Shown here: positions 7,665 through 54,211 of the stretch, one piece after another | How positions within the stretch are numbered: the stretch's first letter is position 1 | How the letters are laid out: each line of letters begins with the position of its first letter | Source: Ostreococcus lucimarinus | Taxonomy: Eukaryota | Assembly: GCA_000092065.1 (NCBI GenBank) | Contig: CP000587.1 | Length of the DNA: 64,000 bases | Reading direction: 5' to 3' (one strand) | Translations under genes and position numbers: made by a program | The notes under the pieces: model-generated | The model's input: only the letters and a program-made list of their open reading frames with translations | The model's database searches: none | Told to the model about the DNA's origin: nothing

Positions 7665-8153
7665 CTACGAATCGTCATAAAGCGTACGAATCACCGTCAG
7701 TCTCTCGCGTCTCGCGTCGGTCTCGCGCGCGCGCAAAACCCTCTTTGGATACGATCGTCCCGCCCCCGCCCGCGCCCACGCGCGCGCGCACGCCGCGCGC
7801 CGCGCCCCCCGATCGCGCGCGCGATCACCACACAACCCCCGCGCGCCCCCGCGCGCACGCGCGCCCCCCGACGCGCGTCGCCATCGCCCGCGCCCTCCCG
7901 ATGACGCCGCGATCCGATCCGCGTTATCCTCACCAGACCCTACGTCCACGACCGGGCCCGGCCGCGCGTCCCTCGCGCGCGCGCGCGTCGCCCCGCGACG
8001 CCATCTCTCGCGCACTATTTTCCTCCACCGAATCCCGCGCGCGATCATCCTCGCCCGCGCGCGCGTCCTCGCGCGCGGCGCGATAATCCCGATGCCCGTC
8101 CCATCGCGCGCCATCGCGTCGTTCGCGCGTCGCGTCGTTCGTCGTTCACGCAC
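7665..8153 (-). other. ATPC: Intron (489 nt) of ATPC, with donor G|GTGCGT, branch CTGACGG 28 nt upstream of the TAG acceptor
   Basis: Inferred from the frame and from comparing the exon junction (transit peptide MSAVAHTSLAMSKATAVRGASVKRSTAAQRATAPQRSLV | IRNASPKEMRDRIASV) with algal ATPC precursors. Confidence 0.5.
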
Positions 8154-11359: not shown

Positions 11360-12709
11360 ATGGGTGCGCACGAGTCCCGCGTCGCCGCGCACGCCACCGC
11401 GTCGACGAGCGCGGCGACGTCGAACGATGTGTCGAGCGGCGGCTTGTCGCGAATCTTCTCGTTCCCTCCTCGCCCGCCGCCGCGCGCCGAGCCTTATCTC
11501 CACCTCCCCACGTATCTCGGTGACCGCGTGCTGGCGTTCCAGTACACGGGCGCGCGCGATGAAGGCGACGGGGCGTACAGGACGGCGCTGCGAGAGAATG
11601 CGCGCGCGTTGGACGAGGCGTTCTCGCCGGGGACGGTGCTCCTAATCTCTTTGAACAGCGCGCTGTTGATGGATAAGAGCATGTACGACGACTTCAATTG
11701 CGTCGTGGAGTTTTGTACGTTTTGGGGCCCGCCGGGCGTGGGCGCGGGTGGGTTAGATTCTATTTTGAGCGCGTGCTCGAGCGCGAAGAATTGGTTGTCG
11801 ATGAGCGAATCAAACGTGGTGTGTTTTCACGTTCGAGTCGAGCGTGGCGCGGACGCGGCGAGAATACTGCGATATGTTGTCGCGTGCTTCGAGACGTACC
11901 GTGCGTCGTCGAGTGAGTTCGACATCGATATGGCGTTTGAAGAGTTGCCGACCGTGCCTCCGCGCGCGTTTTCCGCGCATCGAGCCGCGGCGCCGTCGCG
12001 AGCGCAGATCCGGTACGGAGGATACTTTGGTGACGCCATTCGAACGAGTCGAGAAAGCGGTAAAGAGTGCATCCCCAAGAATAGGCTTAGGTTGAAACGG
12101 TTGGTGATCGCCGGCGGTTTATCGATTCATAATGGTGGTTGGCGGCCCTACGCGAAAGTGATTTGCCAATCGACTGGCGTGGTCGGCAAAAGCGCTACGC
12201 AAGGATTAGCTCCGGATTGGCACGATTCGAAACACGGATTATCGCCGATAGGCATGGAGCTTGTTCGGACGGGGCATGAATCCAACACGTTGTCCGTGGA
12301 AACCGCCATAGGACTGTCGCTCGATGGCGATTGCGTGATATCGATCTTCCACTGGACGGGCGACGAAACCCGCGACGAACTTTCTCCGGTGATGACATTT
12401 GCGTTTCACACGGGTTTCATTCATCTCAAGACCTCAATGGGTGATTCTAAAGCAGGTGTAATGCGGATCACACGAGATCAGATGGACTGCACGGATGAAA
12501 CTCTGATTCCAGACGATTACTTCTTCGATTTGATGTTTCTCGCAGAAAATGCCGAAGCCAAACCCAAAAGGCAAGCTGATATCGCCGTGCAAACCACTCC
12601 GGCGCTGAATGAGACGCACGCGGGATCAAAGATAGCTGAACCACCCGCGCTGCCTACATCACCCTCCCAAGCACCACTTGAGTGTGCTCCACCGCCACCG
12701 CCACCACCA

Positions 12710-12760
<51 letters not shown>

Positions 12761-14008
12761 GGATTCAAGCTCTCATCGGCATCTATGCCGAAAGTAGCAA
12801 CGCCACCAGCCCCAGGCGCACCGCCACCACCGCCGCCACCAGTAGTGCAGTTTCGTTCCGTATCGCTCACGCCTCGAGCGCCGCCGCTAGCCCAAGGCCC
12901 GAATTTGCGGAAGGTTTACTGGGACAAACTCACGGTGACGCAAAATACGTGGTGGAGCGATATAAACAGCGACGTCGGTGCTTTAAGAGAGGAGGAAAAA
13001 CAAGCGATCGTTAAATCTTTCGAGATTCGAGTGAATGCGAGCAAGAAGGCGCTGACTGAAAAGCCGAAACACGTCACGGGTATGCCGACGCTAATTCCGA
13101 TTCCGCGTTCGAATAACATAGCCATCATGCTCTCGCGGTTTCCCATGAGCGCGGAAGGCATCGTTGAGGCCATCGCGACCGGTGATCCGGAAGGTACACT
13201 CACGCTCGAAAGGCTTGCGGTTTTGCTTCAATGTGAACCGACGGAAGAGGAGCTCCAAATAATGCAGAATTTTAAGGGCGATGCGACGGTTTTGAATGCT
13301 CCGGAACGCTTTCTCATGGACCTCGCGACGAAAGTCGAGCGCTTGCCCGATAAAATCGCGGCGTTGGTGTACGCGAGACAATTTCCTGAGATGATGAGTG
13401 AGGCCTACTCTGGCTTGCGGGCAATCGAGCAAGCGTGCTCGCAAGTTAGAGAGGCGGAAGGATTTCGCAAGGTACTCGCCGTGGCGTTACGTGTGGGAAA
13501 CTTTATGAACGCGGGTGGGCCGCGATCGAGCACAAATGGTATCACACTCGACTCGTTACACAAGCTAAGCGACGTTCGAACGACCGCGCCGACGGCCAAA
13601 GGTGGGTGCACGCTGTTGGATTTCGTCGTAGAACTCGTCGACGCCCGAGAAGACGGTGAAATTTCGCTGACGAACGAGCTCGGCGCCTGCCAAGCCGCCA
13701 GCCGCATCGCGCGCGCCGAGCTCGAGGGACTGATTCGCAAGATTACGAGCGGTGCGCAACGAATTAAACGCGAAATCGACAAGTCGAGCGTTCAAAGCTT
13801 CGATGGCTTGCTCGTCGACTTGGACTCCGATGTCGAGGCGCTCTCGAAGGAAGCCGAGCGCGTCGACGCCGAGTTCACGCGATTCGCAGAGCTCTGCGGC
13901 GAGACGCGCAAATCGCCCGAAGATGTTTTTGCGAGTATTTGGACATTCGCGTGCGCGTGTGATGCGTCGAGAGCCGCCCGCGCGCATCGCGCGTCGAAGA
14001 AAAAGTAG
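11360..14008 (+). CDS. Formin with an N-terminal PTEN-like phosphatase/C2 region, FH1 polyproline and FH2 domain (class II plant-type architecture)
   Basis: The N-terminus MGAHES is myristoylation-like. FH1 is a run of 27 consecutive Pro. The FH2 region includes LRKVYWDKL...GFRKVLAVALRVGNFMNAG. Confidence 0.85.
12682..12780. repeat. (CCR)n codon repeat encoding the 27-Pro FH1 tract
   Basis: ccaccgccaccgccaccacca... seen directly. Confidence 0.9.
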
Positions 14009-14915: not shown

Positions 14916-16112
14916 ATGCGCCCGCGAAACCCACCCGACGTCGACGACGCGACGTCGTCGTCCCCGTTCGACTCGTCCGCGCTCCACGGTCGTCTCGTGC
15001 ACGGCACGTGCGGTTGGGCGTCGAAGAGCCAAAATTTAAGCTTTTACGCGCCCAACGAGCTGTCGAGCGGAGAAAGGCGTTTGCCGAGCTACGCCGAGCG
15101 TTTCGGGTGCGTCGAAGTGGACAGCACCACGTATGCCATTCCCACGAGGGACGTCGTCCAGCGCTGGGTCGACGCGACGCCGGACGGTTTCGTGTTCCTC
15201 GTGAAGGCGTTCGGCGGGCTGTGCGCGTCGACCGTCGACGCACGCTCGCTGCCGCGTGACGTACGCGAGATGCTCCCGCCGACGCCTTCGGGGCGCGTCG
15301 CGTACTCGTCGATGCCAACACGGGCGAAGGATGCGCTGTGGGCGCGTTGGAACGATGCCATCGCGCCGATCGTCGAGGCTGGGAAGCTCGGCTGCGTGGT
15401 GTTTCAATTTCATCTGTCGCAAGGCGTCGGCGACGCGCTTCGAGCGCACGCGTTGGAGTGTCAGTCGCGATTGAACGGCGCACGCACGGCGGTGGAGTTT
15501 AGGAACAGAGATTGGATCACGGGCGATGTCGGCACGCAGACGGTGCGCTGGTGCCGCGAACATGATTTATTGCTCGTCGCCGCAGATGAGTTGGAGCACG
15601 AAACGTTTCAGCGTGATAGACAACAAACTGGTTTACCCGTCGGTGCGGTGCGACGAAAAATGCCCACGCGATTGGAACGCACTGTCGACTGGGGATGTTT
15701 GATTCGCGTTCACAGACGGCACGGGACGACGGAGCGCGTGCTCGACGAAGAAGAAATTTCGTTTTGGAGCGAGCGCGTGCGCGCGCTCGATCCCAAACCG
15801 ACGCGAGGACCTATTTGGGTTACTTGGGGCACCGAGTGGCGCGACGCTCCGCTGACGAACGCGCTCGCGCTCGACGACGCCGTCGGCGAGTTTGCGTATG
15901 ATTGGTACGGCACGCGTCGTTCGCGTCCATCAAAATCGAAGCCGTCCGCCAAGTCAATCGCGGCGTTATTCGCCGCAGCGCCCCAGCCGAAAGCGAAGTC
16001 CCCGACGTCGACGCCTCCCGCGCGCAAATCCGAAGCGAGAAAACATCTCAACCCTCTCGCCGCGCTCTGGTCGCGCGCGAATCCCATAGAAGACGCGCGT
16101 CGTACAGATTAA
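14916..16112 (+). CDS. DUF72 (YecE-like, UPF0759) family protein
   Basis: LVHGTCGWASKSQNLSFYAP and VFQFHLSQ match DUF72 blocks. The tail is Lys/Ala/Pro-rich. Confidence 0.65.
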   Translation: MRPRNPPDVDDATSSSPFDSSALHGRLVHGTCGWASKSQNLSFYAPNELSSGERRLPSYAERFGCVEVDSTTYAIPTRDVVQRWVDATPDGFVFLVKAFGGLCASTVDARSLPRDVREMLPPTPSGRVAYSSMPTRAKDALWARWNDAIAPIVEAGKLGCVVFQFHLSQGVGDALRAHALECQSRLNGARTAVEFRNRDWITGDVGTQTVRWCREHDLLLVAADELEHETFQRDRQQTGLPVGAVRRKMPTRLERTVDWGCLIRVHRRHGTTERVLDEEEISFWSERVRALDPKPTRGPIWVTWGTEWRDAPLTNALALDDAVGEFAYDWYGTRRSRPSKSKPSAKSIAALFAAAPQPKAKSPTSTPPARKSEARKHLNPLAALWSRANPIEDARRTD

Positions 16113-16186
16113 TTAGTCAGCAGAAAACCGTTACAGCTCGAAAACCGCAGACACCGCCGCGCGGCGCGCGACGCGGTCGTCCGGCG

Positions 16187-17722
16187 ATGTCGTCCGCTAA
16201 AAAGAAACCACCGAAAACGACCAATCCCGCGTCGCTCGTCGACGCGCGCGTCGACGCCGTCCTCGCGCGCGTGGCCGCTGTGAAGGCGCGCGCCGTCGCT
16301 CTCGACCACGCGCGCGTCAACGTCGACGATGTCGACGCGCTCGTGTCGGGCCTCGGCGCGCTCGGCCTGCGAGCGAGCGAGGACAAACAGCATCCGATCA
16401 CGCGCGTGCAAACACCGCCGCCGTTGCGGAAGCACGCGCACGCGCGCACGGTGAGCGTCTCGGATGTGGATGTGTCCGCGGTGAAGCTCGAGCGCGACGA
16501 AGCGCCGGCGAAGCGCAAGCGCCGCGTGGGGTTGTTGTACGACGACGCGATGGAAATGCACGAAAAGGAGGGACACTTCGAACAGCCGGCGAGACATCGG
16601 GTCGTCGTGAATGAGATCAAGGCGGAGAAACTGGATTTGAGATGCGAACGGCTGGAGGCGCGAGAGGCGACGGAGGCGGAGCTGACGCGCGCGCACACGA
16701 AGGAACACGTGGCGTTCGTCGATTCGGCGTTCGACGTCGATGGAGAGAAGGTACAAGTTATGACTGGCGAGGACGTGTTCGGCGATGACATCTTCTTCAC
16801 GAAGCATACGGCGAAGGGGGCGCGCATGGCGGCGGGGACGGTCGCGGAGGCGTGTTTGGCGGTGGGGCGAGGAGACGTAGACCGAGCGTTCGCGGTGGTG
16901 CGACCACCGGGACATCACGCGGTGTGCGGACAAGCGATGGGATTTTGTTTCTTCAATAACGCCGTCGTGGGAGCACGAGCGGTGATCGAGACAAAACTGT
17001 GCGAGCGAGTCCTGATAATCGATTGGGACGTGCACCACGGTAACGGCATCCAGGACATCGTGTACGAAGACGAGAGCGTGATGTACGTATCGTTGCATCG
17101 ATACGGCGATGGATTTTACCCGGGCACGGGTGCTGTAGCGGAGGTTGGTAAAGGCGGTACGAATGTGAACGTTGCGTGGTCGGAGAAGGGCTTGGGAGAC
17201 GCCGATTACTTGGCCGCGTTTGACGTCGTCATCGAGCCCGTGGTGAAATCTTTCGCTCCAGATTTGATCATCATCGCCGCTGGATTCGACGCCGCGGACG
17301 GCGATCCACTCGGAGGTATGATGGTATCGCCCACGGGCTACATGCACATGACGAAGCGTTTGATTGAAATCGGTACCGGGCGCGTCGTCGTCGCTCTTGA
17401 AGGTGGTTACGCCCTTCGCCCGCTCGCCACGTGCGCGACGGCGACGCTTCGAGCGTTACTCGGCGATGAACCGAAGCCTATATCATCGCGGTCTCGACCG
17501 AGGAAATCAAGCATCAAGCTCTGTCGCGAGCTCGCGTCGCTGCTCGCAGAGCACTGGCCCGTGCTAGAGAGCGACGAGTACAAGAATTCGACGGCGTTGA
17601 TCGCGAAACGCGCCACCGTCGTCGGCGCCGCGCGAGAGTACCCCACCGGTCGCCGCTCGAAATCGCCCGCAAATTCTTCCTCGTCCGCCTCCACTGCCGT
17701 GGGCGCCGTCTGTACGACTTAA
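16187..17722 (+). CDS. Histone deacetylase, class II (HDA5/HDA15-like)
   Basis: RPPGHHA, CFFNNAVVGA, IIDWDVHHGNGIQD and VSLHRYGDGFYPGTG are present. The start is the internal ATG at 16187 (MSSAKKK); the listed ORF start overlaps the DUF72 gene. Confidence 0.85.
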   Translation: MSSAKKKPPKTTNPASLVDARVDAVLARVAAVKARAVALDHARVNVDDVDALVSGLGALGLRASEDKQHPITRVQTPPPLRKHAHARTVSVSDVDVSAVKLERDEAPAKRKRRVGLLYDDAMEMHEKEGHFEQPARHRVVVNEIKAEKLDLRCERLEAREATEAELTRAHTKEHVAFVDSAFDVDGEKVQVMTGEDVFGDDIFFTKHTAKGARMAAGTVAEACLAVGRGDVDRAFAVVRPPGHHAVCGQAMGFCFFNNAVVGARAVIETKLCERVLIIDWDVHHGNGIQDIVYEDESVMYVSLHRYGDGFYPGTGAVAEVGKGGTNVNVAWSEKGLGDADYLAAFDVVIEPVVKSFAPDLIIIAAGFDAADGDPLGGMMVSPTGYMHMTKRLIEIGTGRVVVALEGGYALRPLATCATATLRALLGDEPKPISSRSRPRKSSIKLCRELASLLAEHWPVLESDEYKNSTALIAKRATVVGAAREYPTGRRSKSPANSSSSASTAVGAVCTT

Positions 17723-17737
17723 TCGATGTAAAAAAGT

Positions 17738-17779
17738 AAAGTAAATCACTGAGACGTGAAAGTAAATCACTGAGACGTG
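17738..17779. repeat. Perfect tandem duplication, 2 x 21 nt (aaagtaaatcactgagacgtg), in the HDAC 3' flank
   Basis: Seen directly in the sequence. Confidence 0.85.
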
Positions 17780-17855
17780 TCGCGTCAGAAAAAACGGCGA
17801 TTTTAATCGGCGTTTTTCGCCACAACTCGGCTCGACTCTCGACTGTCGACTCCCG

Positions 17856-19784
17856 ATGACCATCCGCGGCCGCGCGCGATCGATATGCGTCCTTCTCGCC
17901 GCGCTCGCACTGACGACGAGCGCGTACGCCGCGCCGACCTCAGCGCCGCGCGCGCGCAGCCGCGCGACGCCCGCGCCCGCGACGTCTCGTCCCCGCGATT
18001 CCCCGGACATCGAAACATCGAACATCGACATGAACGACGTCGAGGCGTTTCTCACGCAAGCGCGCGATGAATTCATCGCGACCCGCGCGTCGCGCGGGTC
18101 TTCACACGGCCGCTCGACGACGACGTCTCCGGACGAAGCCGGTTTGGACTGGATCGCGTCGTTCTTCTCGCCTCGGGAACGTCGCCGCGGCTCTGCGGGT
18201 CGCGCGGCGCGTAATCGACGCGACTCGAACTTGCCTCCGGTTGAAGTGGATCAGACCGGCGTTGACTTCTACCTCACCGCGCGCGCGTACGCGCAAGAAC
18301 ACGCGGTGAGCGATCCTCGGGGCGGTCGGATGCGCATCGCTCGCGCAGAGGAACCGAATCAGTTTCAGTGGTGGTACGATTTCATTTGGCAAACGCAACA
18401 ACAAATCATCGCTTGCGAAGGACGAGAATCGTGCGAAGGTCTTTGGCATCAGTTCGGCGCGCAAGGCAGCATTTGTTGTGACGCCGGTGCCGAATTTTAC
18501 GGTCACGCTCACTTTTCGTGCGTCGAAAGTGTCGAACAATGCGAGGCGCTCACCACGTGCGCCTCGTCCGCCGATTGCGGCGTGAATCAAGTGTGTTGCG
18601 CGACGAAGCCGCATTCTGACGATTTGATGTGCGTGACGAGCTTTCAAGACTGCGCGGCGTACTGTCACTCCGATGCGCAGTGTAAAGCGGAGAAAGGCGA
18701 ACAGTGTTGCTACGACGAAGTACTCGGATACACGATTTGTATCCCGGAAGGGCTATCGTGTCCACCGCCCCCGCCAGAGTGCCCGACCACGGGACAGCCG
18801 ACGTGCCGCTCGGACTCCGAGCGCACGTGTTGCGGTGGCGTCTGTTGTCCGCCGGATGAAAACGGTGTTGAATGGTTGTGTTGCAGAATCTGTGACGAAA
18901 ATGTTTGCTACCGAGCTACCCCCTCTCTGGGGGACGGAAGCTACGAGTGTCCGGACCCATTTTGCCCGCGGCCTCCAGAGTGTTCGTCGCAAGCAGAGTT
19001 GAGTCAGTGCACGGATCCGGTGAACCCGATCGTCGCCGCGCAATCTGCGCGCAATGGCGATCCTCCGACCGGTAGCATTTGCTGCGGTGGTGTGTGCTGT
19101 GAGATCGGGGACCCCGATCTGGTGCCCATCGGCACATTCGGCCCGAACTTTTGCTGCTACGATTTCCCGGACGGTCCTTCTGGTTGGAGTTGCCAACCAG
19201 GCATCCCTGGTGACCCGCTTCCGACTCCCCCGCCCGGTTGCGCGCGACAACCTCCCAGCGCTCAGTGTCCGGCCGGTTCTGAGTATTTGGATACGTGCGT
19301 TGCTGACGATCAGTCTATTGGCGTGTGCTGTGGACCGGAAGTTGACGGCGGCGGGCTGACATGCTGCCCTGATGAATCCGTGTGTTGCGCCAACGTCGTG
19401 GACGGAGCGACCGTCGGTTACGAATGCAAAGCCCAGAATGAGTGCCAAGAGGGTGAGTTATGCAGGATACTCGGTGACTGTCCGAACTCTCAGCAATACT
19501 CGGTCTGTGGTTCGTGCGGACAGGGCAATAATGACTGCGCGCTGTCCTGCCAAGCGGGCGCAGGTGAGCCTCCGAACGACCCTTCGTGGATTTGTTCCAC
19601 CGTCGATGGTTGCGACCCAGTCGCCGACTACAACAACGGCCCGAGCGATGCCACGTGCGTGTGTAATAACGGAGCGTGCGGCGGCGCGACTCAATGTAAG
19701 ACAGGAGGGAATTGCTGCGCGTGCCAAGCTCGTGGCCCGCGCGGTGGCGTGCAATGCGACAACCCACCAACCGTATTGGTTTGA
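17856..19784 (+). CDS. Secreted cysteine-rich protein with CC-doublet modules (granulin-like spacing; CCGGVCC motif appears twice)
   Basis: Signal peptide MTIRGRARSICVLLAALALTTSAYA. There are more than 80 Cys residues and repeated CC doublets: ICC, VCC, QCC, TCCGGVCC, LCC, ICCGGVCC, FCC, VCC, TCC, NCC. Confidence 0.7.
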   Translation: MTIRGRARSICVLLAALALTTSAYAAPTSAPRARSRATPAPATSRPRDSPDIETSNIDMNDVEAFLTQARDEFIATRASRGSSHGRSTTTSPDEAGLDWIASFFSPRERRRGSAGRAARNRRDSNLPPVEVDQTGVDFYLTARAYAQEHAVSDPRGGRMRIARAEEPNQFQWWYDFIWQTQQQIIACEGRESCEGLWHQFGAQGSICCDAGAEFYGHAHFSCVESVEQCEALTTCASSADCGVNQVCCATKPHSDDLMCVTSFQDCAAYCHSDAQCKAEKGEQCCYDEVLGYTICIPEGLSCPPPPPECPTTGQPTCRSDSERTCCGGVCCPPDENGVEWLCCRICDENVCYRATPSLGDGSYECPDPFCPRPPECSSQAELSQCTDPVNPIVAAQSARNGDPPTGSICCGGVCCEIGDPDLVPIGTFGPNFCCYDFPDGPSGWSCQPGIPGDPLPTPPPGCARQPPSAQCPAGSEYLDTCVADDQSIGVCCGPEVDGGGLTCCPDESVCCANVVDGATVGYECKAQNECQEGELCRILGDCPNSQQYSVCGSCGQGNNDCALSCQAGAGEPPNDPSWICSTVDGCDPVADYNNGPSDATCVCNNGACGGATQCKTGGNCCACQARGPRGGVQCDNPPTVLV

Positions 19785-19907: not shown

Positions 19908-20843
19908 TTATTTACTCGATCCATCAAACGGCTTTCGCGCAATGATGGCCGAGGCGGCGCCGAACGGGAACAACGCCGAGATTTCCACCGCTTCGGCGCC
20001 GAGCGCCTCGAGTTCGTCTGCGACTTCTCTGGGCGTCCTCGCGCGCTCGATCGAAGTGCCCAGGTACGCGTACGCCTTCTTTTCGCCCGTCATCAACGCG
20101 CCGACGAGCGGCAGTACGAAGCGCAACCACAACCGCAACACCGCGCCGAAAATTCCCGTCGGCGGAAACGCATCTAAAATCAACAGCGTGCCGTTCGGCT
20201 TGCACACGCGGAACATCTCCCTCAACGTCTCCGGCACGTCGGAGAAATTTCTGAGCGTGTAGCACGTCGTCACGCAGTCAAACGACGCGTCCGCGAACCT
20301 CAACTTCCCCGCGTTCCCGACCTCGTACTTCGCCTCGCCCGGCGTCAACCGACGCGCTTCCTCGATCATATTTTTCGAGCAATCCACGCCGACGACGTCG
20401 AGCGCTAAATAATTCATCGCCTCGTACTCCAAAAACCGCGTGACGTTTCCCGTGCCGCACCCGACGTCGAGCACCGAGTCTCCTCTTCGAAACACCCTTC
20501 TCCCTCTCGCGAACGCCGGCGCGAACGTCGCGACGAGCCCCGCGGACAGCGCTTTCCTTCGCCATCGATCGACGAAGCCCAGCGCGAGGACCGCGTTCAC
20601 CGCGTCGTAGCGATGCGCGACGACGTCGAAGAGCTGCGAGACGAATTCGAGCTTCGCGTCGCCCGTGAGCGTCGTCCCGCGCTCCGCGGACGTCGCTCGA
20701 AACGTCGACATTGACTTCCACGCGCGCGTCGTCGCGACGCGCGGTCGAGCGCGCGCGCGACGCGACGCGACGCGACGCGCGACGCTGTGCCGATTTCGAT
20801 TTCGGAGTCGAGGGTTTGTCGCGCGCGCTTTATCCGTCGGCAC
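19908..20843 (-). CDS. MENG: UbiE/MenG-family methyltransferase (demethylphylloquinone/menaquinone methyltransferase-like), organelle-targeted
   Basis: VLDVGCGTGN is the SAM motif. FDCVTTCYTLRNFSDV...EMFRVCKPNGTLLILD...KKAYAYLGTSIE aligns to MenG/UbiE. The N-terminus is Arg-rich. Confidence 0.7.
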   Translation of the reverse strand: MPTDKARATNPRLRNRNRHSVARRVASRRARARPRVATTRAWKSMSTFRATSAERGTTLTGDAKLEFVSQLFDVVAHRYDAVNAVLALGFVDRWRRKALSAGLVATFAPAFARGRRVFRRGDSVLDVGCGTGNVTRFLEYEAMNYLALDVVGVDCSKNMIEEARRLTPGEAKYEVGNAGKLRFADASFDCVTTCYTLRNFSDVPETLREMFRVCKPNGTLLILDAFPPTGIFGAVLRLWLRFVLPLVGALMTGEKKAYAYLGTSIERARTPREVADELEALGAEAVEISALFPFGAASAIIARKPFDGSSK

Positions 20844-20914
20844 ACGCGCGCGCGCCGATCGCCCGCGCGCGCGGGCCGAGCGCTCGAGTCGCGACGCCGT
20901 CGAGCGCGCGAGCG

Positions 20915-41772: not shown

Positions 41773-42252
41773 TGCCGCGCGCCGTATCGAGTGGGGAATG
41801 ATACGCTGTCGCCACATTTTACCGTGAAATTGAACGAATTCTCTCTGCCTGGAACGTCATTGTACGAACGATTTTACAAGAATGTGAAGAACGCCGATCC
41901 GCAATCCATTCGGCTCGCCTTCCATGGAACATCGTTCGCGGCGGCGAAGCTGATACTGAAAAACGGTATGAGTCCATCACGACGAATCAACACACAAGGC
42001 GACTGGTTTACACTGGACATCAACTATGCGCTCACGAGAAGTATCTGTCGTGAGGACCACAGCGCGCAATGGGGTGGTACACCCAAGGACGAAGAGCCAG
42101 ACGCGTACTCGAAGAGCGTTGTGGTGATCTGCTTCGCCGTCTACATGCCAAAAACGATCTACATCGGGGAACACATCGTCTGCACATGCGAGAAACATAG
42201 TCTTCCGATCTCAATGCTCGAGTTTCCGCGAGAGCCTTACGATCCCGCGTAA
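41773..42252 (+). CDS. Zinc-ribbon + PARP-like ADP-ribosyltransferase protein, exon 2 (catalytic-like domain)
   Basis: AFHGTSFAAAKLILKNGMSPS ... GDWFTLDINYAL ... KSVVVICFAVYMPKTIYIGEHIVCT aligns block-for-block with mono-ART PARP catalytic cores (FHGT / HGF / G-x-aromatic-F / Y / E). Confidence 0.55.
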   Translation, partial: CRAPYRVGNDTLSPHFTVKLNEFSLPGTSLYERFYKNVKNADPQSIRLAFHGTSFAAAKLILKNGMSPSRRINTQGDWFTLDINYALTRSICREDHSAQWGGTPKDEEPDAYSKSVVVICFAVYMPKTIYIGEHIVCTCEKHSLPISMLEFPREPYDPA

Positions 42253-42385
42253 ATGAATGACTTTGCAAGTAGGAACGTCTTGTAGTGAAACAGAGAAACG
42301 TTGGTTTGCATCGAGGGTTGAATCTTGATTATTACGTCATGCGCGCGTGTATGATGCGCTCCTAGAATGAATAACGCGCAACTAT

Positions 42386-44485
42386 TTACGCGGTCGTGGC
42401 AGGTGCCGCATCTTCCGGGGAACCCTCGTCTTCGAAACAGCACGTCAAGCTTCGCGTGGCGCGTTCGCGCGCGAGCACTTCGAGCAGCGCGGTCAGCTTG
42501 TGCTCACCGTGGACCTTGTTATCACGCGTGCGCACGTTCACCGTTTCGTTCGCTTTTTCGCTTTCGCCGCACACCAAGATATAGTTGAACTGATCGAGCT
42601 GCGCCTCGCGAACCTTCTTTTGCATCTTACGATCCGTGACGTCGACTTCCGCGAAATGACCGGCCTTGCGGAGTTGGCGCTTGACCTCGTAGCAGTAGTC
42701 TCTCGAGGCTTCAGAGATCGGCACAATCATGACTTGTTTTGGCGACAACCAATACGGCCACTTACCCGCAAAGTGCTCGGTCAAAATCGCGAACATACGC
42801 TCGACAGAACCGAGGATAGCTCTGTGAATGATGATCGGCCTCACCGACGAGTTGTTTTCGTCGACGTACGACAGGTCAAATCGAATCGGAAGCTGAAAGT
42901 CGAGCTGGACCGTCGCACACTGGAAGCGACGCTTGAGCGCATCGAAGACAGTGATGTCAATCTTCGGACCGTAGAAGGCGCCGTCACCTTCGTTCAGCTT
43001 CCACTCTCTGCCGCTTCGGTCCAACGCAGACTTGAGCGCCGCCTCCGCCTTGTCCCACACCTCCAACTCACCCAAGTATCCCTCTGGACGCGTCGATAGC
43101 TTCATCTCGTACGTGAGACCAAACACTTCGTACACATCATCTAAGAACTGCAAGAAACCGCTCAACTCCTGTTCCATTTGATCCTCACGGCAGAAGATGT
43201 GCGCGTCGTCTTGCTGGAAGCGGCGAACGCGCGTTAAACCGTGAAGCGCACCCGAGAACTCGTTTCGGTGCAGCACACCGAAATCAGCCACACGCATGGG
43301 GAGTTCACGGTACGTTCTGTGTCGATGCGCGAACATGACGCAGTGACCCGGGCAGTTCATCGGCTTCAGACCAAACTCTTCCTTTTCGACGTTGAAGCTG
43401 AACATGTTTTCCTTGTAGTGCGCCGCGTGACCGGACGTCTTCCAGAGGTCAAAGTTGTAAATATTCGGCGTGATGACTTCGTCATACTCGTATTCCCAAT
43501 ACTTTTCTCGAATAAATTGGACCAAGTTGTTGTAGATGCGCGCGCCGTGCTTTTGGAAAAAACACGAGCCCGGGGAGAGATGGTGGAAAAAGAACAGCTC
43601 TTGGTTCAAGCCAATGGTGCGGTGATCGCGTTTCTTCGCTTCTTCGATGCGCGTGGTGTATTCCTTCATGAGTTTGTCGCTCGGGAAAGTCACGGCGTAC
43701 ACGCGCACGAGCGGGTCCTTGGTGACGTCCGCGCGCCAGTGGGCTCGCGAGCACTGGTTCACGCTGACGCTCTTCAACCACGCGGTGTCCGGCAAGTGCG
43801 GACCGCGGCACAGATCCACCATCGGCCCGCAGCGATAGCACGAAATCGTCGCGTCTTCGGGCAAGTTGGAAATCAACTCAATTTTGAACTTGTTCTCTTC
43901 GAACATCTCCAACGCCTCGGCGCGGCTGACGACGATGCGTTGAAATTCTTGTTTTTCTTTGATGATCTTTTCCATGCGCCCCTTGATGATTTCCGTGTCT
44001 TCCGGCGTCAGCGTGCGCTCGCCCAAGTAGCAATCGTAGTAGAAACCCTCCTCGATCGCCGGTCCGATGGTCAAATCCGCCCCGTACTCCAACTCCAACG
44101 CCTCCCCCAAGACGTGCGCGCTCGAGTGCCAATAACACTCCTTCCCCTCTTCGTCGTCGAAAGTAAACAACGCCAGCGCGCAGTCCCCCTCCAACGGTCG
44201 TCGCATGTCCCAAAACTCCCCATCGACCTTCGCCACGAGCGCGCTCTGCGCCAGCTTCTTGTGTATCCCCAACGCGATGTCGAACGGCGTCGTCGCGAAT
44301 CGCGTCCCATCCTTTTGCGCGCCGTCCGGCAGGGTCACTTTAATCCCTTCCCCCCGCGCCTTCGCCTCTTCGATCCGCGTCAGCTCCCGCGCGCGATACT
44401 TATCGAACAAATCGATCCGGTGCGCGTAATACGGCGACTTCTCTCGCGCGTGATCCGCGTTCGTCGGCGTCGGCGCGTCCGCCAT
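42386..44485 (-). CDS. Threonyl-tRNA synthetase
   Basis: Class II aaRS motifs and the ThrRS-specific blocks HRNEFSGALHGLTRVRRFQQDDAHIFC, plus an N-terminal TGS/editing region. 699 aa. Confidence 0.9.
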   Translation of the reverse strand: MADAPTPTNADHAREKSPYYAHRIDLFDKYRARELTRIEEAKARGEGIKVTLPDGAQKDGTRFATTPFDIALGIHKKLAQSALVAKVDGEFWDMRRPLEGDCALALFTFDDEEGKECYWHSSAHVLGEALELEYGADLTIGPAIEEGFYYDCYLGERTLTPEDTEIIKGRMEKIIKEKQEFQRIVVSRAEALEMFEENKFKIELISNLPEDATISCYRCGPMVDLCRGPHLPDTAWLKSVSVNQCSRAHWRADVTKDPLVRVYAVTFPSDKLMKEYTTRIEEAKKRDHRTIGLNQELFFFHHLSPGSCFFQKHGARIYNNLVQFIREKYWEYEYDEVITPNIYNFDLWKTSGHAAHYKENMFSFNVEKEEFGLKPMNCPGHCVMFAHRHRTYRELPMRVADFGVLHRNEFSGALHGLTRVRRFQQDDAHIFCREDQMEQELSGFLQFLDDVYEVFGLTYEMKLSTRPEGYLGELEVWDKAEAALKSALDRSGREWKLNEGDGAFYGPKIDITVFDALKRRFQCATVQLDFQLPIRFDLSYVDENNSSVRPIIIHRAILGSVERMFAILTEHFAGKWPYWLSPKQVMIVPISEASRDYCYEVKRQLRKAGHFAEVDVTDRKMQKKVREAQLDQFNYILVCGESEKANETVNVRTRDNKVHGEHKLTALLEVLARERATRSLTCCFEDEGSPEDAAPATTA

Positions 44486-49592: not shown

Positions 49593-52500
49593 ATGGCGCG
49601 CACCGCGCGCGCGCGCGCGCGCGGCGACGCGACCCGACGTTCGTGGCGCGCGCGCGTCGCGCTCGCCCTCGTCGGCGCGTGCGTCGGCGCGTGCGCGACG
49701 CGCTCTGTCGACGCGATGTGGTTCGGTAAGAAATCTTCAGGCGCGGCGGAAAGGGTGCGCGCGGACGCGCTGGACGACGGCACGACGCCGGGCGCGCGCG
49801 GCGGGACGGAGTTAATGTCGGCGGCGTTGGAAGCGCGCGTGCCGCGGGCGCTGGTGAAGCGATTTCACGTGGTGAAGTCGCGCGTGCGCGCGCTGAGCGC
49901 CGACGCGCGACGGCCGAACGTGCTGTGGTTGCAGGATTTGCCCAACGATCCCGAGAGCGAGCATCTGCGCGAAGAGAAGAATCGGGAAAAGTTTGCAAAA
50001 TTCATGTTCGTGAGTGAGTGGCAGAAAAGCGCGTATGAGTCGTATTTCGGGGATGTATTCGGAGAGAAGGCGGTGGTGATGAGAAACGCCATCGAGCCGT
50101 TCGAACGTCAACGTAAAGAACCTCCGGAGGATGGAGTGCTGCGGTTGATTTATCACACCACGCCGCATCGTGGATTGGATATATTGATGCACGTGTTCCC
50201 GAGATTGTACGACGCGCACGAGGGTATGTTGCATTTGGACGTGTATTCAAGCTTTTCTATATACGGGTGGCACGAACGAGACCATCCGTACGCGCCGTTG
50301 TTTCAGGCGTGTGAGCAACATCCAGGATGTACGTATCACGGCGCGGTGTCGAATGACGATGTACGAGACGCATTGCGTTCGGCGCATATTTTTGCCTATC
50401 CCTCGACGTGGATGGAGACGTCGTGCATCGCCGCCATCGAGGCGTTGAGCGCAGGCGTGCACGTCGTGACGAGCAGTTTAGGCGCGCTCGTCGAGACAGT
50501 CGGTACTTTCGGTACTATATACGAGTTTAAGCAAGATTGGTCAGAACATGCGGATGCGTTCGAGCAAGCGATGCATGGGGCGATCGAGTCTTACTGGGAG
50601 GTGACTTCGGTTCGTCTCCGGCGAGTACAACAAGTGTATGCGTCGCAAATCTTCGGCTGGGGATCGCCTGGATTAAGGGGACGCGCCGATGACTGGATTG
50701 TACTTCTCGGTGGCATCCACGAGGATTTTAATGGGGGGCGTGACGTAGGGAGGGATGATTTTGATTCAGACGGCGATTATTCCGACGCTCTTTTCGTTGC
50801 AGGTAGAGTGAGAGAATCTCGGGGCGACCAGAAGGGTGCGTACGAAAAGTATCTGCAATCTCTCGAGTTCAATCCTTTGAATTCGTACACTATGGTTGCG
50901 ATGAGTACCTTGGAGATCATGGTCGGCGAATCGAATGGTGATCACTCGACGGCATTACGGGGCATCGAGCGGATGGAGTCTGCCATCGATGACCCCGATG
51001 GCCTCTCGCCGCCGCTCGAGCCGAATTCCGCCGCTTATTTTGGCATCGCCATGCGAAGCGGATACTGGAGAGAGACGCGAAATTGGGCCGCACGCGCGCG
51101 CATTAATTTTGAAAAGGGTTTAAACACTTCTCAACATGGCGAAGACGATTGCTGGGAGCTGTATTACGCCACGATTGTGCCCCACTTTCCGTTGACGCCC
51201 GAGGAGGAGCGCCGCAGGATCCAAAAGTATAATGCCGGAATCGACGAAATGCTCCGCAAGGACGATCTTTTCTGCCGTAATCAAGCAGGTTTAGGCAACG
51301 TGTTTTCAATCGCGTACTACTTCGATGGCGTAGACTATAAGGACGAGTACTCGAGATGGGTGCAACTGAAGTTGAAGGCGTTCCCGGATCTTTTGTACAA
51401 GGCGAATGCGCTCGTGTACGAAAACGACGACAACTATCTGTCGAGCGCGCAGAGCACGGCTGTGCAGAAGGCGCTCATGCGTCGTAAAATCAAGATTGGT
51501 GCCGTCTCATCATTTTTCACGTCCGAGTCGAGCATTTGGGGAAACTTCGGAGAAATCGTGCTCGGGCTTCAACGCGACGCGCGATTTGAAGTCGACATGG
51601 TGCACTACCCACGCGATCCGATCAAGGAGGAGGATATAAATCTCTCGTTGCGTCCCGAACGAAGCATCGTGTTGATAAAGGGCGGTGATCTCGAAACCGT
51701 CAAAGCGAATCGCGAGGCGATCGAAGAGAGAAGGTTTGATGTTCTGATTTATCTTGACCTGTTCATGACGGGCGAGATGCACGATCTCGCCGTGGCGAAA
51801 CTGGCACCGGTACAAATGGTCACGCACGGTCACCCCGTAACATCTGGTATCCCGGCTTGGATCATGGATTATTTTATTTCTTGGGATCTTGCCGAGCTTC
51901 CCGATCAAAAGAAAGCGCAGAGCTTCTATACGGAGGAGTTACTGCTGGTTAAGAGTAAAAAGGCGGCGTGGGAGTACTACAAGCCACGAACTGAAGGAGA
52001 AGTATCGATCATTGTTGGTGAAGCGCCGTTCTATCAATTCACCAGAGAAAATCTTGATTTCATTCCGGCTGAAGAAATGGAGAAACTCTCATCCCGTGAC
52101 GGTTTGACATGGTATTTCTGCCCGCAAGCCGTGTTCAAGTATCACATTACGTTTGACCAGATTTTGGGCAAGATACAAAGAGAAGATCCGAACGCAATAA
52201 TCATTCTCATGAAGCTCGTCGATAACGCGCTTGAGGCGTTGCACGAAAAAGTCGTGGAAAGATTAATTAAGCAAGGAGACGTTGATCTCGACCGCGTCGT
52301 GTTCATTCCGCGAATGAAGCATTACCAGTTAATGGCAATGTACAAGCTGTCAGACGTCGTTTTGGATAGCGTTTATTTTGGTGGCGACACCACGACGCGA
52401 GAAGCTTTCGAAGTTGGTTCGCCCGTGATTACACTACCCGGTAAGACCATTGGTCAGCGTTGGACACAAGCTTATTACAGAGTCATGGGCATCAAGGATT

Positions 52501-52733
52501 TCATCGCCAGAACGGTTGACGAATATGTTCGAATCGCCGTCAAGGCGGCGAACGCAACAGACAAGCAAAAGTCGAATACACGCGCTCGCATCAAGAAAGC
52601 ACTGCATAAAAAATTGTTCAAAAATGCGGATGCTCCGAGGTTGTGGGGGGATGCCATCATGAGTGCGCTGCAGAAGCCCAAGCGTTGGCACTGGATCGAG
52701 GCCGAACCGCTGAAACAACACGACGAGCTTTAG
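49593..52733 (+). CDS. Multidomain glycosyltransferase: signal anchor, GT4 (GT-B group 1) domain, TPR-like linker and C-terminal GT41 (O-GlcNAc transferase-like) catalytic domain
   Basis: Signal anchor ARVALALVGACVGACA. The GT-B block is AYPSTWMETSCIAAIEALSAGVHVVTSSLGALVETV. The C-terminal blocks THGHPVTSGIPAWIMDYFISWD and YFGGDTTTREAFEVGSPVITLPGKTIGQRWTQAYY match the OGT/SPY C-terminal domain. The start is the internal ATG at 49593. Confidence 0.7.
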   Translation: MARTARARARGDATRRSWRARVALALVGACVGACATRSVDAMWFGKKSSGAAERVRADALDDGTTPGARGGTELMSAALEARVPRALVKRFHVVKSRVRALSADARRPNVLWLQDLPNDPESEHLREEKNREKFAKFMFVSEWQKSAYESYFGDVFGEKAVVMRNAIEPFERQRKEPPEDGVLRLIYHTTPHRGLDILMHVFPRLYDAHEGMLHLDVYSSFSIYGWHERDHPYAPLFQACEQHPGCTYHGAVSNDDVRDALRSAHIFAYPSTWMETSCIAAIEALSAGVHVVTSSLGALVETVGTFGTIYEFKQDWSEHADAFEQAMHGAIESYWEVTSVRLRRVQQVYASQIFGWGSPGLRGRADDWIVLLGGIHEDFNGGRDVGRDDFDSDGDYSDALFVAGRVRESRGDQKGAYEKYLQSLEFNPLNSYTMVAMSTLEIMVGESNGDHSTALRGIERMESAIDDPDGLSPPLEPNSAAYFGIAMRSGYWRETRNWAARARINFEKGLNTSQHGEDDCWELYYATIVPHFPLTPEEERRRIQKYNAGIDEMLRKDDLFCRNQAGLGNVFSIAYYFDGVDYKDEYSRWVQLKLKAFPDLLYKANALVYENDDNYLSSAQSTAVQKALMRRKIKIGAVSSFFTSESSIWGNFGEIVLGLQRDARFEVDMVHYPRDPIKEEDINLSLRPERSIVLIKGGDLETVKANREAIEERRFDVLIYLDLFMTGEMHDLAVAKLAPVQMVTHGHPVTSGIPAWIMDYFISWDLAELPDQKKAQSFYTEELLLVKSKKAAWEYYKPRTEGEVSIIVGEAPFYQFTRENLDFIPAEEMEKLSSRDGLTWYFCPQAVFKYHITFDQILGKIQREDPNAIIILMKLVDNALEALHEKVVERLIKQGDVDLDRVVFIPRMKHYQLMAMYKLSDVVLDSVYFGGDTTTREAFEVGSPVITLPGKTIGQRWTQAYYRVMGIKDFIARTVDEYVRIAVKAANATDKQKSNTRARIKKALHKKLFKNADAPRLWGDAIMSALQKPKRWHWIEAEPLKQHDEL

Positions 52734-52780
52734 ACTTGAATAGTTTACGTAGATTATTACATAAAGTCGACAGCGATAAC

Positions 52781-53512
52781 TCACACCTTCTTCGCCTTGG
52801 CACCGCCGAACAACTTTTTCACCGTGCGCACAATCATCATTATGATGCGCCAACCCCACATCACGGACACGACGAAGATGCCAAGAGCGCCCGCCTTGAC
52901 GATGTACGTGTTCGAGTCGTTCACGACCGTTCGCCATACCAACGGCGGACCGACGATGAGTCGGCAAAGCAAGAACAACAGCGCAAACAACAAGTCATTC
53001 AACGTCGCCAGGAGACTATCCTTCATGTTCAATTCGCGCAACATGGAGCGCAAGTGCAAGCTCGGATTGCTCACCTCCATCAAAAACAAGCACCCGACCA
53101 GTTCGGGGCCACTGCGCCCGGTGATGACTCCGCTCGCGAGCCCGCCGACGGTGAACATGTGATGGACCACATTCTCCACCTCGTTATTCAACAGGCAATA
53201 AAAGAAGTCGTACACGAAATAACCCAGCGACAGCGTCATGCACTCCAAGTGCGCCATCGTGTTCGCTCCGCCTACGTTCTCCAACAGCGCCCCCCACGTC
53301 GGCAGGCATCGCGCGCACATGTAAATGGCCACGACGGCGTGAATGAAGCTCACAGTGCGATTGGAAAAGTCGGCTGTGCGTCGGCGCAGGACGCCGAAGC
53401 GCAGGAAGACGTAGAGTAGCGTCCACCCGACGCTCTGCGGGACAACCTTTTGCAGCGAAGGAATGGCGACGCGGAGGTACTCCAAGTCGAGCGACGGCGA
53501 CTTACTAACCAT
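52781..53512 (-). CDS. TLC (TRAM/LAG1/CLN8) domain membrane protein
   Basis: Six hydrophobic helices. HHMFTVGG...MEVSNPSLHLRSML matches TLC-domain blocks. Confidence 0.65.
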   Translation of the reverse strand: MVSKSPSLDLEYLRVAIPSLQKVVPQSVGWTLLYVFLRFGVLRRRTADFSNRTVSFIHAVVAIYMCARCLPTWGALLENVGGANTMAHLECMTLSLGYFVYDFFYCLLNNEVENVVHHMFTVGGLASGVITGRSGPELVGCLFLMEVSNPSLHLRSMLRELNMKDSLLATLNDLLFALLFLLCRLIVGPPLVWRTVVNDSNTYIVKAGALGIFVVSVMWGWRIIMMIVRTVKKLFGGAKAKKV

Positions 53513-53709
53513 AATGACGTCGTTGATGATGTTCTTCGCGTATCAGGACGCGATAATGCGGCCTAGCGCGGTGAGCGATGCGCTGTGACGGCGGACATGG
53601 CGAAGGTTAAATCTATTGAGCGAGGAGACGCGCGAGCCAAGAGCGCGCACGGCGGCCAATGGCGAGTCTATGCGGTTTAGCGGCCAATCTATGCATTGAT
53701 ATTCTATAT

Positions 53710-53982
53710 CTAAAACCAAAAGTTGATGCTTATCGACGGCGTGAGTGCGCGGACGTAGTGCCAGCATTTTGCCGGGATGTAAACAAAGTCGCCCGGTCCG
53801 ACTATAACTTCGTACGCCGTAGCTAAGCTAAATTCAGGGAAGCGATCGAGGTCGGGGTGTTCCACGTCCACAGCGGAGAAGTTCCCTTGCGAATGTCTCG
53901 TCGTGGATTTAGACGCGGTCGTGCGGTACATGTAAGGCGTATCCGACTCGAGAAATAGTCTTATCAACTTGTATCCCGCAAC
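53710..53982 (-). CDS. JmjC-domain protein, exon 2 (C-terminal part of the JmjC fold)
   Basis: VAGYKLIRLF...VDVEHPDLDRFPEF...PGDFVYIPAKCWHYVRALTPSISINFWF. The track's 'M' at 54000 is actually a GTG codon, not an ATG. This exon starts at the acceptor tttttgtgcttgcag|GTT. Confidence 0.7.
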   Translation of the reverse strand, partial: VAGYKLIRLFLESDTPYMYRTTASKSTTRHSQGNFSAVDVEHPDLDRFPEFSLATAYEVIVGPGDFVYIPAKCWHYVRALTPSISINFWF

Positions 53983-54211
53983 CTGCAAGCACAAAAACAC
54001 GCGAAGTGAGTCGACGGCGGCGGCGGGGTTGGCGAATACGAATGTAGGGCGCTGTGTAGGCCGACGCTCATAACTTTGATACGCCGGTTCTATTGGCGCT
54101 CGCGTTTATGTAGGGAGTCGGTATCACCGGGCTGCCATGACTTTCACAGACCGGCTTCTATTAGACTCCCGCAACGAAAGTGGACAAAAATACGAGTTGC
54201 TCAAAGCGCAC
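53983..54211 (-). other. Intron (229 nt) of the JmjC gene
   Basis: Donor GGTCAG|GTGCGC immediately after the FGQ codons. The acceptor has a pyrimidine tract plus CAG. Both exons are in phase 0. The joined sequence reads HFDTYDNLFGQ|VAGYKLIRLF, restoring the conserved JmjC motif. Confidence 0.65.

Follow-up and report, generated by a model that had tools for sequence, protein, structure and literature searches.

The window analyzed here is a 64,000-nucleotide stretch of the Ostreococcus lucimarinus genome (contig CP000587.1, assembly GCA_000092065.1). Within it, an intron-less gene encoding a cysteine-rich protein lies between a histone deacetylase (HDAC) gene and a UbiE-type methyltransferase gene (coordinates of all features are collected in Table 1). 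A sequence-only reading of the same DNA had proposed the 642-amino acid (aa) open reading frame (ORF) at 17856–19784, and an exact-sequence look-up confirmed it: the translation is a 100% match to XP_001418631.1 / ABO96924.1 / UniProt A4RZU6, which carries the public label “predicted protein” of O. lucimarinus CCE9901. In the ORF listing, the ATG at 17856 is the earliest start codon 3′ of the preceding stop. We conclude that the ORF is a genuine gene because of its identity to an annotated protein, the existence of full-length homologs at 37–98% identity, its place in the same HDAC/UbiE block in several lineages, and an omega (ratio of non-synonymous to synonymous divergence) of 0.14 against the O. 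tauri gene, a comparison in which synonymous divergence (dS) is saturated. A tblastn search within the 64-kb window did not find a paralog.

The protein begins with what reads as a three-part signal peptide. A basic segment (MTIRGRARS) is followed by a hydrophobic core (ICVLLAALALTT) and then by SAYA and AP, with A-Y-A standing directly before the cut that the −3/−1 small-residue rule predicts. Manual analysis of hydrophobicity and charge gave a 10-residue Kyte-Doolittle maximum of 3.18 and a net charge of +3 over residues 1–10. The same pattern is present in 8 of 8 orthologs with a complete N-terminus (h-region Kyte-Doolittle 2.5–3.2); a ninth, P0097, has a mis-called start and was excluded from this set (here and below, P00xx denotes family proteins and L0xx related genomic loci or contigs). 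The signal peptide claimed in the sequence-only reading thus recurs across the family, and it stays in place on review of the gene model. No later hydrophobic segment was found in the orthologs (19-residue Kyte-Doolittle at most 1.27), and their C-termini showed no membrane anchor, hydrophobic tail, or KDEL/HDEL retention signal. The mature form has an acidic pI of ∼4.3 and a mass of ∼65 kDa, and in O. lucimarinus it contains no N-glycosylation sequon. By manual sequence analysis, the protein therefore has the hallmarks of a classical secreted protein (an n/h/c signal peptide with no later transmembrane segment or retention signal); it is most likely soluble and either secreted or lumenal, actual secretion being what these hallmarks would predict.

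Behind the signal peptide, a basic proline-rich linker leads into a conserved cysteine-free domain, and the remainder of the protein consists of three six-cysteine modules, three larger modules (A, B, and C), and a C-terminal domain with 16 cysteines. Residues 57–186 contain helices in a low-confidence model and have no Pfam or PDB match. An arginine-rich stretch with RERR and RNRR (aa 107–122, nt 18174–18221) lies between the helices of this domain. A dibasic (RxRR) proprotein-processing site at this place is possible and weak as a candidate; RxRR or RR occurs in most orthologs but P0005 and P0007 are without it, and we set the candidate aside. The cysteine spacing of the six-cysteine modules is common to all homologs, and the profiles of these modules resemble each other weakly (hhalign probability 0.4–22%). 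By the same profile-profile comparison, modules A, B, and C are mutually homologous (A vs B 86%, A vs C 89%, B vs C 83%; E = 3e-6 to 9e-6), and the repeat is therefore a triplication. The heptad of module C reads CCGGACC, CCSGSCC, and similar in other lineages and is interrupted by an insertion in O. lucimarinus and O. tauri (e.g., CCGPEVDGGGLTCC in O. lucimarinus). The C-terminal domain is marked by the motifs CGSCGxGN, PPNDP, CxCNNGxCGG, and GNCCACQ.

Mature cysteines are confined to the modular part. The protein has 67 cysteines in 642 residues (10.4%), of which 66 fall among the 457 residues after residue 186 (14.4%), and the single cysteine of residues 1–186 lies inside the signal peptide. 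There are 13 CC doublets; shuffling of the cysteine-rich part yields a mean of 9.4 (standard deviation 2.6, p = 0.12), and the doublet count alone is thus weak evidence. That the pattern is genuine follows instead from the conservation of the mature-region cysteines, 62 of 66 being invariant across eight homologs of 37–98% identity, and the cysteine framework is under strong long-term constraint. Among the four that are not invariant, two are two-residue shifts in position and two represent a paired loss. Changes in cysteines come as four co-varying pairs: C317 and C330 of module A are jointly lost in P0004, P0005, and P0007; their module B equivalents, C385 and C414, are jointly lost in P0072; P0097 and P0078 lack C346 together with C365 or, in an alternative alignment, C370; and a pair at 568 and 632 is found in all lineages except O. 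lucimarinus and O. tauri. The number of mature cysteines is even in most lineages. Because two independent paired losses have occurred at equivalent positions, modules A and B probably share one disulfide topology, and because of the paired losses together with the signal peptide, structural cystines are favored over metal ligation. The 66 cysteines would thus form about 33 intramolecular disulfides, with a pairing map that is itself predicted. One allele, P0001 (L008), carries L455C (nt 19218–19220) in the proline-rich linker between modules B and C, which gives it 67 cysteines and potentially a free thiol; it also has a 2-aa deletion at aa 420–423.

The sequence-only reading had anticipated much of this layout and erred in several counts. 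Its modular cysteine-rich arrangement is supported, its proline- and glycine-rich linkers are reflected in the composition of aa 303–530 (Pro 15.8%, Gly 11.4%), and CCGGVCC does occur exactly twice, at aa 325–331 and 409–415. The two copies are 84 residues apart, not ∼100, and the internal repeat that was recognized around them is real but is one of three copies rather than a duplication. Cysteine content had been put at 13% and the number of CC doublets at ten, both of which are replaced by the figures above, and the quoted spacing C-x6-C-x6-CC-x3-CC-x10-CC misses one cysteine, since the series at the first heptad is C-6-C-7-C-7-CC-3-CC-10-CC.

Comparison with known families yielded no relative. 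A hmmscan of Pfam-A at E≤10 matched no model to the window protein or to any of the 8 members, a null result that covers the models for granulin (PF00396), EGF, hevein/Chitin_bind_1 (PF00187), knottins and toxins, metallothionein, TNFR, and VWC; sequence and profile searches of the PDB at E≤10 found no match. Consistent with the earlier view that no catalytic motif is recognizable, no Pfam domain of any kind, and hence no known enzyme family in Pfam, was matched. An AlphaFold model of aa 296–532, built on a 9-sequence alignment, reached a mean predicted local distance difference test (pLDDT) score of 69 (81–87 in module A and 73–83 in module C) and consists of beta-hairpins. A Foldseek search of the PDB with this model found nothing significant (best E = 5.5, template-modeling score ∼0.1), its top, non-significant entries being generic cysteine-rich ectodomains (DcR3, Pvs25, uromodulin, VWF C4, and TNFR2), and a fold search of BFVD gave a best E of 1.3 and no viral fold neighbor.

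The resemblance to granulin on which the sequence-only reading had leaned did not survive. Granulin/epithelin modules are likewise small, secreted, and disulfide-rich, with adjacent cysteine pairs, and the modules studied here are likewise predicted to form beta-hairpins. However, a granulin has 12 cysteines and four CC in the order C-x5-6-C-x5-CC-x8-CC-x6-CC-x5-CC-x4-C-x5-6-C, whereas modules A–C have 10–11 cysteines and three CC around a tight CC-x3-CC core and show no profile or regular-expression match. The granulin consensus is absent from 11 family sequences even with ±2 residues per loop, the PF00396 search that had been suggested gave no match among 8 members at E≤10, and by these sequence comparisons we rejected a granulin identity. 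Small disulfide-locked modules strung in tandem along a secreted protein also recall EGF-like domains, TNFR cysteine-rich domains, and VWF C domains, but all fold matches have E>5 and a template-modeling score of ∼0.1, no Pfam model applies, and the cysteine spacing differs; for EGF in particular, PDB chains containing the domain appear only at E>6 with a score of ∼0.1, so that membership is not indicated. The N-proximal modules share with the consensus patterns of knottins and hevein the order of single and double cysteines (C...C...CC...C...C), yet their loops are longer and neither Chitin_bind_1 nor a knottin/toxin Pfam model matches. High-sulfur keratin-associated proteins have CC-x3-CC repeats as well, but those proteins stay inside animal cells, lack a signal peptide, and consist of short pentapeptide repeats; the likeness is limited to CCxxxCC and superficial, the picoalgal heptad being an element of a secreted module of 50–80 aa. 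Nor does the protein look like a metallothionein, given its signal-peptide-like start, its 642 aa, the paired change of its cysteines, and the lack of a Pfam match. In evolutionary mode, the closest likeness is to conotoxins, defensins, Giardia variant-specific surface proteins, and Plasmodium P25/P28, which are cysteine-framework proteins with variable loops; shared traits are an invariant cysteine frame, fast change between cysteines, and an excess of amino acid polymorphism. There is no sequence or fold kinship with any of them, however, and the picoalgal gene is single-copy rather than part of a large family. By these comparisons, the protein is modular, disulfide-rich, probably secreted, and of a generally familiar sort, and its modules fall outside described families.

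Homologs were few and taxonomically narrow. A word-indexed search of 5.8 billion proteins returned 7 homologous clusters, 13 matches (several of them fragments) emerged when 1.84 billion representative proteins were searched exhaustively with a HMMER profile, and a second word-indexed search using a broader alignment added no further members. All 13 matches come from Ostreococcus-like picoalgal contigs. Named members are from O. lucimarinus and O. tauri only, the others being marine metagenome contigs of 57–63% GC, several of which follow the gene order of the window. O. tauri is represented by CEF98958.1 (“unnamed product”) and by OUS49036.1, whose label “EGF-like domain-containing protein” (UniProt A0A1Y5IHJ6) is automatic. 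No relative was seen when viral contigs were scanned with conserved peptides. These matches support the earlier impression of a lineage-specific gene and point to a small family, so far undescribed, whose members are confined to Ostreococcus-like picoalgae. Within its block the gene is the fastest-evolving, as the protein is 37–46% identical in the same lineage pairs in which block neighbors are 51–84% identical.

Variation within O. lucimarinus was assessed in seven haplotype contigs from independent samples, which represent four distinct alleles and were aligned over 22 kb. Among the 13 genes scanned, the cysteine-rich gene ranked first both in nucleotide diversity (pi = 0.0072) and in segregating sites (15 per kb), and the sharpest 500-bp peak (pi = 0.0195), at 18856–19355, takes in the hypervariable segment aa 420–484. 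Synonymous polymorphism is not raised (0.0062 per codon, vs 0.0113 in flanking genes), and polymorphic codons number 19 non-synonymous and 4 synonymous, where the eight flanking genes together have 22 and 52 (Fisher p = 1.7e-5); restricting the analysis to three haplotypes that cover every gene left the imbalance in place (17:4 vs 21:52, p = 2.7e-5). Of the 19 amino acid polymorphisms, 13 fall in the segment aa 420–484, where alleles differ by 2–3 aa in length. In this segment 12 amino acid polymorphisms were observed against a neutral expectation of 2.3 from flanking synonymous sites (p = 6e-6), and 7 against 1.9 when the proline-rich linker was left out (p = 0.003). Only one of the 19 variable residues occupies a family-invariant column (binomial p = 0.036), and no variant removes a cysteine. 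A similar picture was seen in O. tauri, in which the reference and a metagenomic contig differ by 18 non-synonymous and 5 synonymous changes, mostly in the loops of modules A–C, compared with 0 and 5 in the neighboring RrnaAD and 194-aa genes of the same pair. The cysteine frame is fixed, and the loops may be anything from nearly unconstrained to diversifying, with positive selection a possible reading.

Conservation of the gene does not extend to its position. O. lucimarinus and the L002 and L014 lineages share the order HDAC, cysteine-rich gene, UbiE, and L004 has the same block, gene included, in a locally rearranged form. The O. tauri ortholog is at CAID01000009.2:124483–126330 (L006), between BUD31/G10 and RrnaAD on a different chromosome from the HDAC block, and is not syntenic with the window; O. 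tauri chromosome 7 keeps the HDAC (ostta07g01090)/UbiE/anthranilate synthase (07g01110) block with no room for the cysteine-rich gene. The P0072 gene is in yet another context. Within a single cluster of at least 90% identity two contexts coexist, P0037 occupying the HDAC-UbiE slot (GC 62%, GC at third codon positions (GC3) of neighbors 0.68–0.79) and P0003 and P0038 lying between a VTT-domain gene and gyrB (GC 54–57%, neighbor GC3 0.48–0.68). These two contexts share just 2,061 bp at 93% identity, consisting of the coding sequence with ∼120 bp upstream and ∼160 bp downstream, and the copies differ by a dS of 0.10, an omega of 0.53, and 61 amino acids, with 0 cysteines changed. Ten contigs with the same gyrB have in this slot a 240-aa ORF and an aquaporin (MIP) gene (L018 4304–5442) and no trace of the cysteine-rich gene; their flanks are 85–91% identical to those of L016, with sharp breakpoints at L016 9929/9930 and 12132/12133. 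By these alignments, the gene has changed its genomic context as a discrete ∼2-kb unit. The copy beside gyrB may have arisen by duplication onto a low-GC, outlier-type chromosome region, by relocation, or by transfer between related species. The candidate mating-type region of Mamiellales is reported to have a GC content 9–17% lower and two alleles that are unalignable and non-syntenic (PMC8557840). L016 and L018 were considered as MT+ and MT− haplotypes, and this was rejected because they are colinear at 85–91%.

The O. tauri ortholog was assigned by gene order to ostta09g00840 (“unnamed product”), flanking tags being AIR carboxylase (09g00792), NDR kinase (09g00810), rRNA dimethylase (09g00820), and G10/BUD31 (09g00860) (PMC10540734, PMC5508029). 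This tag is listed in Supplemental Tables 2–4 of a diel multiomics preprint, of which Table 4 comprises rhythmic genes with two peaks (10.1101/2023.07.31.551326), and we count the ortholog as expressed because of this listing. The gene has a GC3 of 0.61–0.66, the lowest or near-lowest of its neighborhood (neighbors mostly 0.69–0.86) in five lineages (the window, L002, L003, L004, and L006), which would be consistent with weak codon-usage selection and hence with modest or conditional expression. Our literature search found no main text that names the family accessions or ostta09g00840, and one on secreted cysteine-rich Ostreococcus proteins found nothing relevant.

The explanation that we favor, with slightly better than even confidence, is that the gene encodes a secreted, soluble, non-enzymatic scaffold of ∼33 disulfides whose variable loops serve extracellular binding or recognition. 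The protein would enter the secretory pathway by way of its signal peptide and fold into a helical cysteine-free domain of ∼130 aa followed by ∼455 aa of small disulfide-locked modules. The disulfides would create a rigid, protease-resistant beta-hairpin scaffold that leaves loops and linkers free to vary, and the product would act in non-catalytic binding or recognition outside the cell or on its surface. Like secretion and the disulfide map, the binding function is something we infer. The functions floated in the sequence-only reading were surface, adhesion, metal-binding, and antimicrobial roles; metal binding has become unlikely in view of the signal peptide and the paired change of cysteines, and binding of the surface, adhesion, or antimicrobial type is mildly favored by the loop polymorphism.

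Several observations weigh against this explanation. Secretion is a prediction from N-terminal hydrophobicity and charge. Odd cysteine counts occur in P0072 (65), P0004 (67), and the P0001 allele (67), and the full-length AlphaFold model, at a mean pLDDT of 43, is too poor to use. Over the whole gene, 19 amino acid polymorphisms compare with a neutral expectation of 22.9, which is no excess, and the loop variation could thus reflect relaxed constraint and not selection for diversity. The window aa 420–484 was picked post hoc, and it is partly a proline-rich low-complexity linker in which slippage-type multi-nucleotide changes inflate counts. Finally, the available part of two proteome supplements for O. 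tauri did not contain the ortholog, although a secreted protein would escape proteomics of cell pellets.

The main rival gives the protein a passive structural role in the cell coat or extracellular matrix, in which the modules give stiffness or cross-linking and the loops are simply unconstrained. The neutral level of polymorphism over the whole gene fits such a role, as does the fact that its most variable part is a proline-rich linker missing in other lineages; the invariant CPPPPPEC recalls motifs of plant hydroxyproline-rich wall proteins, the extra unpaired cysteine of the P0001 allele could form intermolecular links, and the GC3 that is low in every lineage could reflect weak codon-usage selection. 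However, Ostreococcus cells are naked and are not known to have a wall or scales, the protein has no anchor, and its N- and C-terminal domains are strongly conserved (78% in the C-terminal domain), which suggests specific interactions; moreover, polymorphism in aa 420–484 exceeds the neutral level even without the linker. We consider a structural role unlikely. An arms-race protein would be a specific form of the binding scaffold that we favor: it could determine virus attachment, serve as a decoy, or be a binder with antimicrobial or antiviral action, and prasinoviruses or bacteria would impose diversifying or balancing selection on its loops. An excess of amino acid polymorphism in two species, the fastest evolution of the block, and repeated moves to new genomic contexts are all in keeping with it, and Ostreococcus strains are well known to differ in their susceptibility to viruses (PMC5082852, PMC5371798). 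Nevertheless, the gene identifier was not found in the accessible part of the supplements to the viral-immunity-chromosome paper, no viral homolog emerged by sequence (viral contigs) or by fold (BFVD), the protein lacks a membrane anchor, and positive selection is a possibility only. We hold this version to be distinctly unlikely as it stands.

The remaining alternatives carry little probability. A fast-evolving secreted mediator of cell-cell recognition in a cryptic sexual cycle, acting in gamete recognition or mating, would also show a conserved frame with variable loops, and the low-GC context of one clade's copy (54–57% vs 62%) resembles the GC drop of the candidate mating-type region (PMC8557840). 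However, most lineages, O. lucimarinus and O. tauri included, have the gene in ordinary high-GC surroundings; L016 and L018, unlike the MT+/MT− regions, which are reported to be unalignable, are colinear; and the words cysteine, secreted, gyrase, and aquaporin are absent from the main text of PMC8557840. The chance of such a role is small. We regard as smaller still the chance of a metallothionein- or phytochelatin-like protein that binds or buffers metal through its thiols. A high cysteine content with many CC and CxC motifs and a strongly acidic character would suit it, but the signal peptide directs the protein to an oxidizing compartment, cysteines change in pairs and are mostly even in number, only 7 histidines are present, all of them outside the CC-x3-CC modules and the C-terminal domain, and the cysteines, instead of forming metallothionein-type clusters, are spaced along modules predicted to be beta-hairpins, with no match to the metallothionein Pfam model. 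Almost no credence is left for a divergent granulin or epithelin acting as a growth-factor-like signal; secretion, CC doublets, and predicted beta-hairpins speak for it, whereas PF00396 went unmatched and the four-CC, 12-cysteine spacing is absent within ±2 residues.

A bolder version of the binding scaffold that we favor is a mobile, fast-diversifying recognition determinant of picoalgae whose loops, displayed on a fixed disulfide frame, are kept variable by diversifying or balancing selection and which travels as a ∼2-kb unit, one clade's copy having replaced the aquaporin in a low-GC, outlier-like region. This is a long shot, but if true, the gene could encode an extracellular factor, long sought in Mamiellales, that sets the specificity of virus attachment or of gamete recognition. 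Among marine primary producers, Ostreococcus and related algae are abundant; their genomes are minimal, their cells are naked, their sexual cycle has never been seen, and very few of their extracellular proteins have a known role. The gene is a candidate for functional work, being conserved in the group, predicted to be secreted and disulfide-scaffolded, relocating, and variable in its loops to ∼6 times the amino acid polymorphism of its neighbors (as also seen in the O. tauri pair), and O. tauri is genetically manipulable. It also defines a domain family that lacks a Pfam model and a structural neighbor. Were it just a structural protein with unconstrained loops, it would be an ordinary orphan; what lifts it above a plain orphan is a polymorphism signal that was replicated, together with relocations the size of a gene.

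Table 1. Features of the cysteine-rich gene, its neighbors, and related loci (window coordinates unless a locus is named)
Feature	Position	Strand	Basis or remarks
Cysteine-rich protein coding sequence	17856..19784	+	642 aa + stop; intron-less, uninterrupted ORF; full-length homologs
Signal-peptide-like N-terminus, aa 1–25	17856..17930	+	hydrophobicity and charge computed per ortholog
Basic Pro-rich linker, aa 26–56	17931..18023	+	pI 11.4; Pro 19%; poorly conserved in alignment
Cys-free N-terminal domain, aa 57–186 (~130 aa)	18024..18413	+	conserved; invariant DWIASFF, QWWYDF
Three six-Cys modules, aa 187–229, 235–266, 270–302	18414..18761	+	C-x5-C-x(5-13)-CC-x(9-13)-C-x6-C
Module A, aa 302–351	18759..18908	+	invariant CPPPPPEC; first CCGGVCC at nt 18828–18848
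Module B, aa 365–446	18948..19193	+	second CCGGVCC at nt 19080–19100; long variable loops
Hypervariable segment, aa 420–484	19113..19307	+	module B loops, Pro-rich B-C linker, head of module C
Module C, aa 462–530	19239..19445	+	third copy; hhalign and alignment
C-terminal 16-Cys domain, aa 531–642	19446..19781	+	78% identity to O. tauri; best-conserved Cys-rich part
HDAC gene, upstream neighbor	ORF 15902–17722	+	Pfam labels of orthologs at related loci
UbiE-type methyltransferase gene, downstream neighbor	ORF 19908–20843	-	Pfam labels of orthologs at related loci
Shared 2.06-kb unit	L014 9879–11933; L001 9885–11936; L016 9927–11978		pairwise alignment
Spec3-like 89-aa gene	L002 9451–9720 (-); L006 10110–10379 (+); L007 2686–2952		79–80% identity between lineages

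Short direct repeats lie just upstream of the gene. The HDAC stop and the ATG of the cysteine-rich gene are 134 bp apart, and this interval contains a perfect 21-bp direct repeat, AAAGTAAATCACTGAGACGTG, in two copies (17738–17779) and 3.7 copies of the 7-bp repeat CTCGACT (17831–17856), the latter ending on the ATG. Other short direct repeats (gctgtcccgtc and gagaaacgcc, two copies each) are found upstream of the O. tauri ortholog (L006 ∼7920–7970). Such repeats may be promoter elements. A gene for a small hydrophobic 89-aa protein with a faint Pfam Spec3 match adjoins the cysteine-rich gene in two lineages whose wider neighborhoods differ. It was considered as an obligate partner, and this was rejected because it is adjacent in those 2 lineages only and was not found in the 64-kb window or at any other locus among L001–L013.

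A scan of the whole window (1–64000) identified no tRNA genes and no Rfam families at the gathering threshold, and GC content in 2-kb steps ranged from 52% to 70%, with low patches at 1–2000, 42001–44000, and 50001–54000. In the 22-kb haplotype alignment, a second diversity peak (12356–12855, 14 segregating sites, pi = 0.010) falls in a formin/FH2 gene, which overall has 5 non-synonymous and 17 synonymous polymorphic codons. The O. lucimarinus-type haplotype L011 carries an extra 169-aa ORF (13210–13719) on an insertion of ∼850 bp between the UbiE and chorismate-binding genes; this ORF is absent from the window (∼20712–20914) and from L009, and the 500-bp stretch at 20356–20855 has 12 segregating sites.

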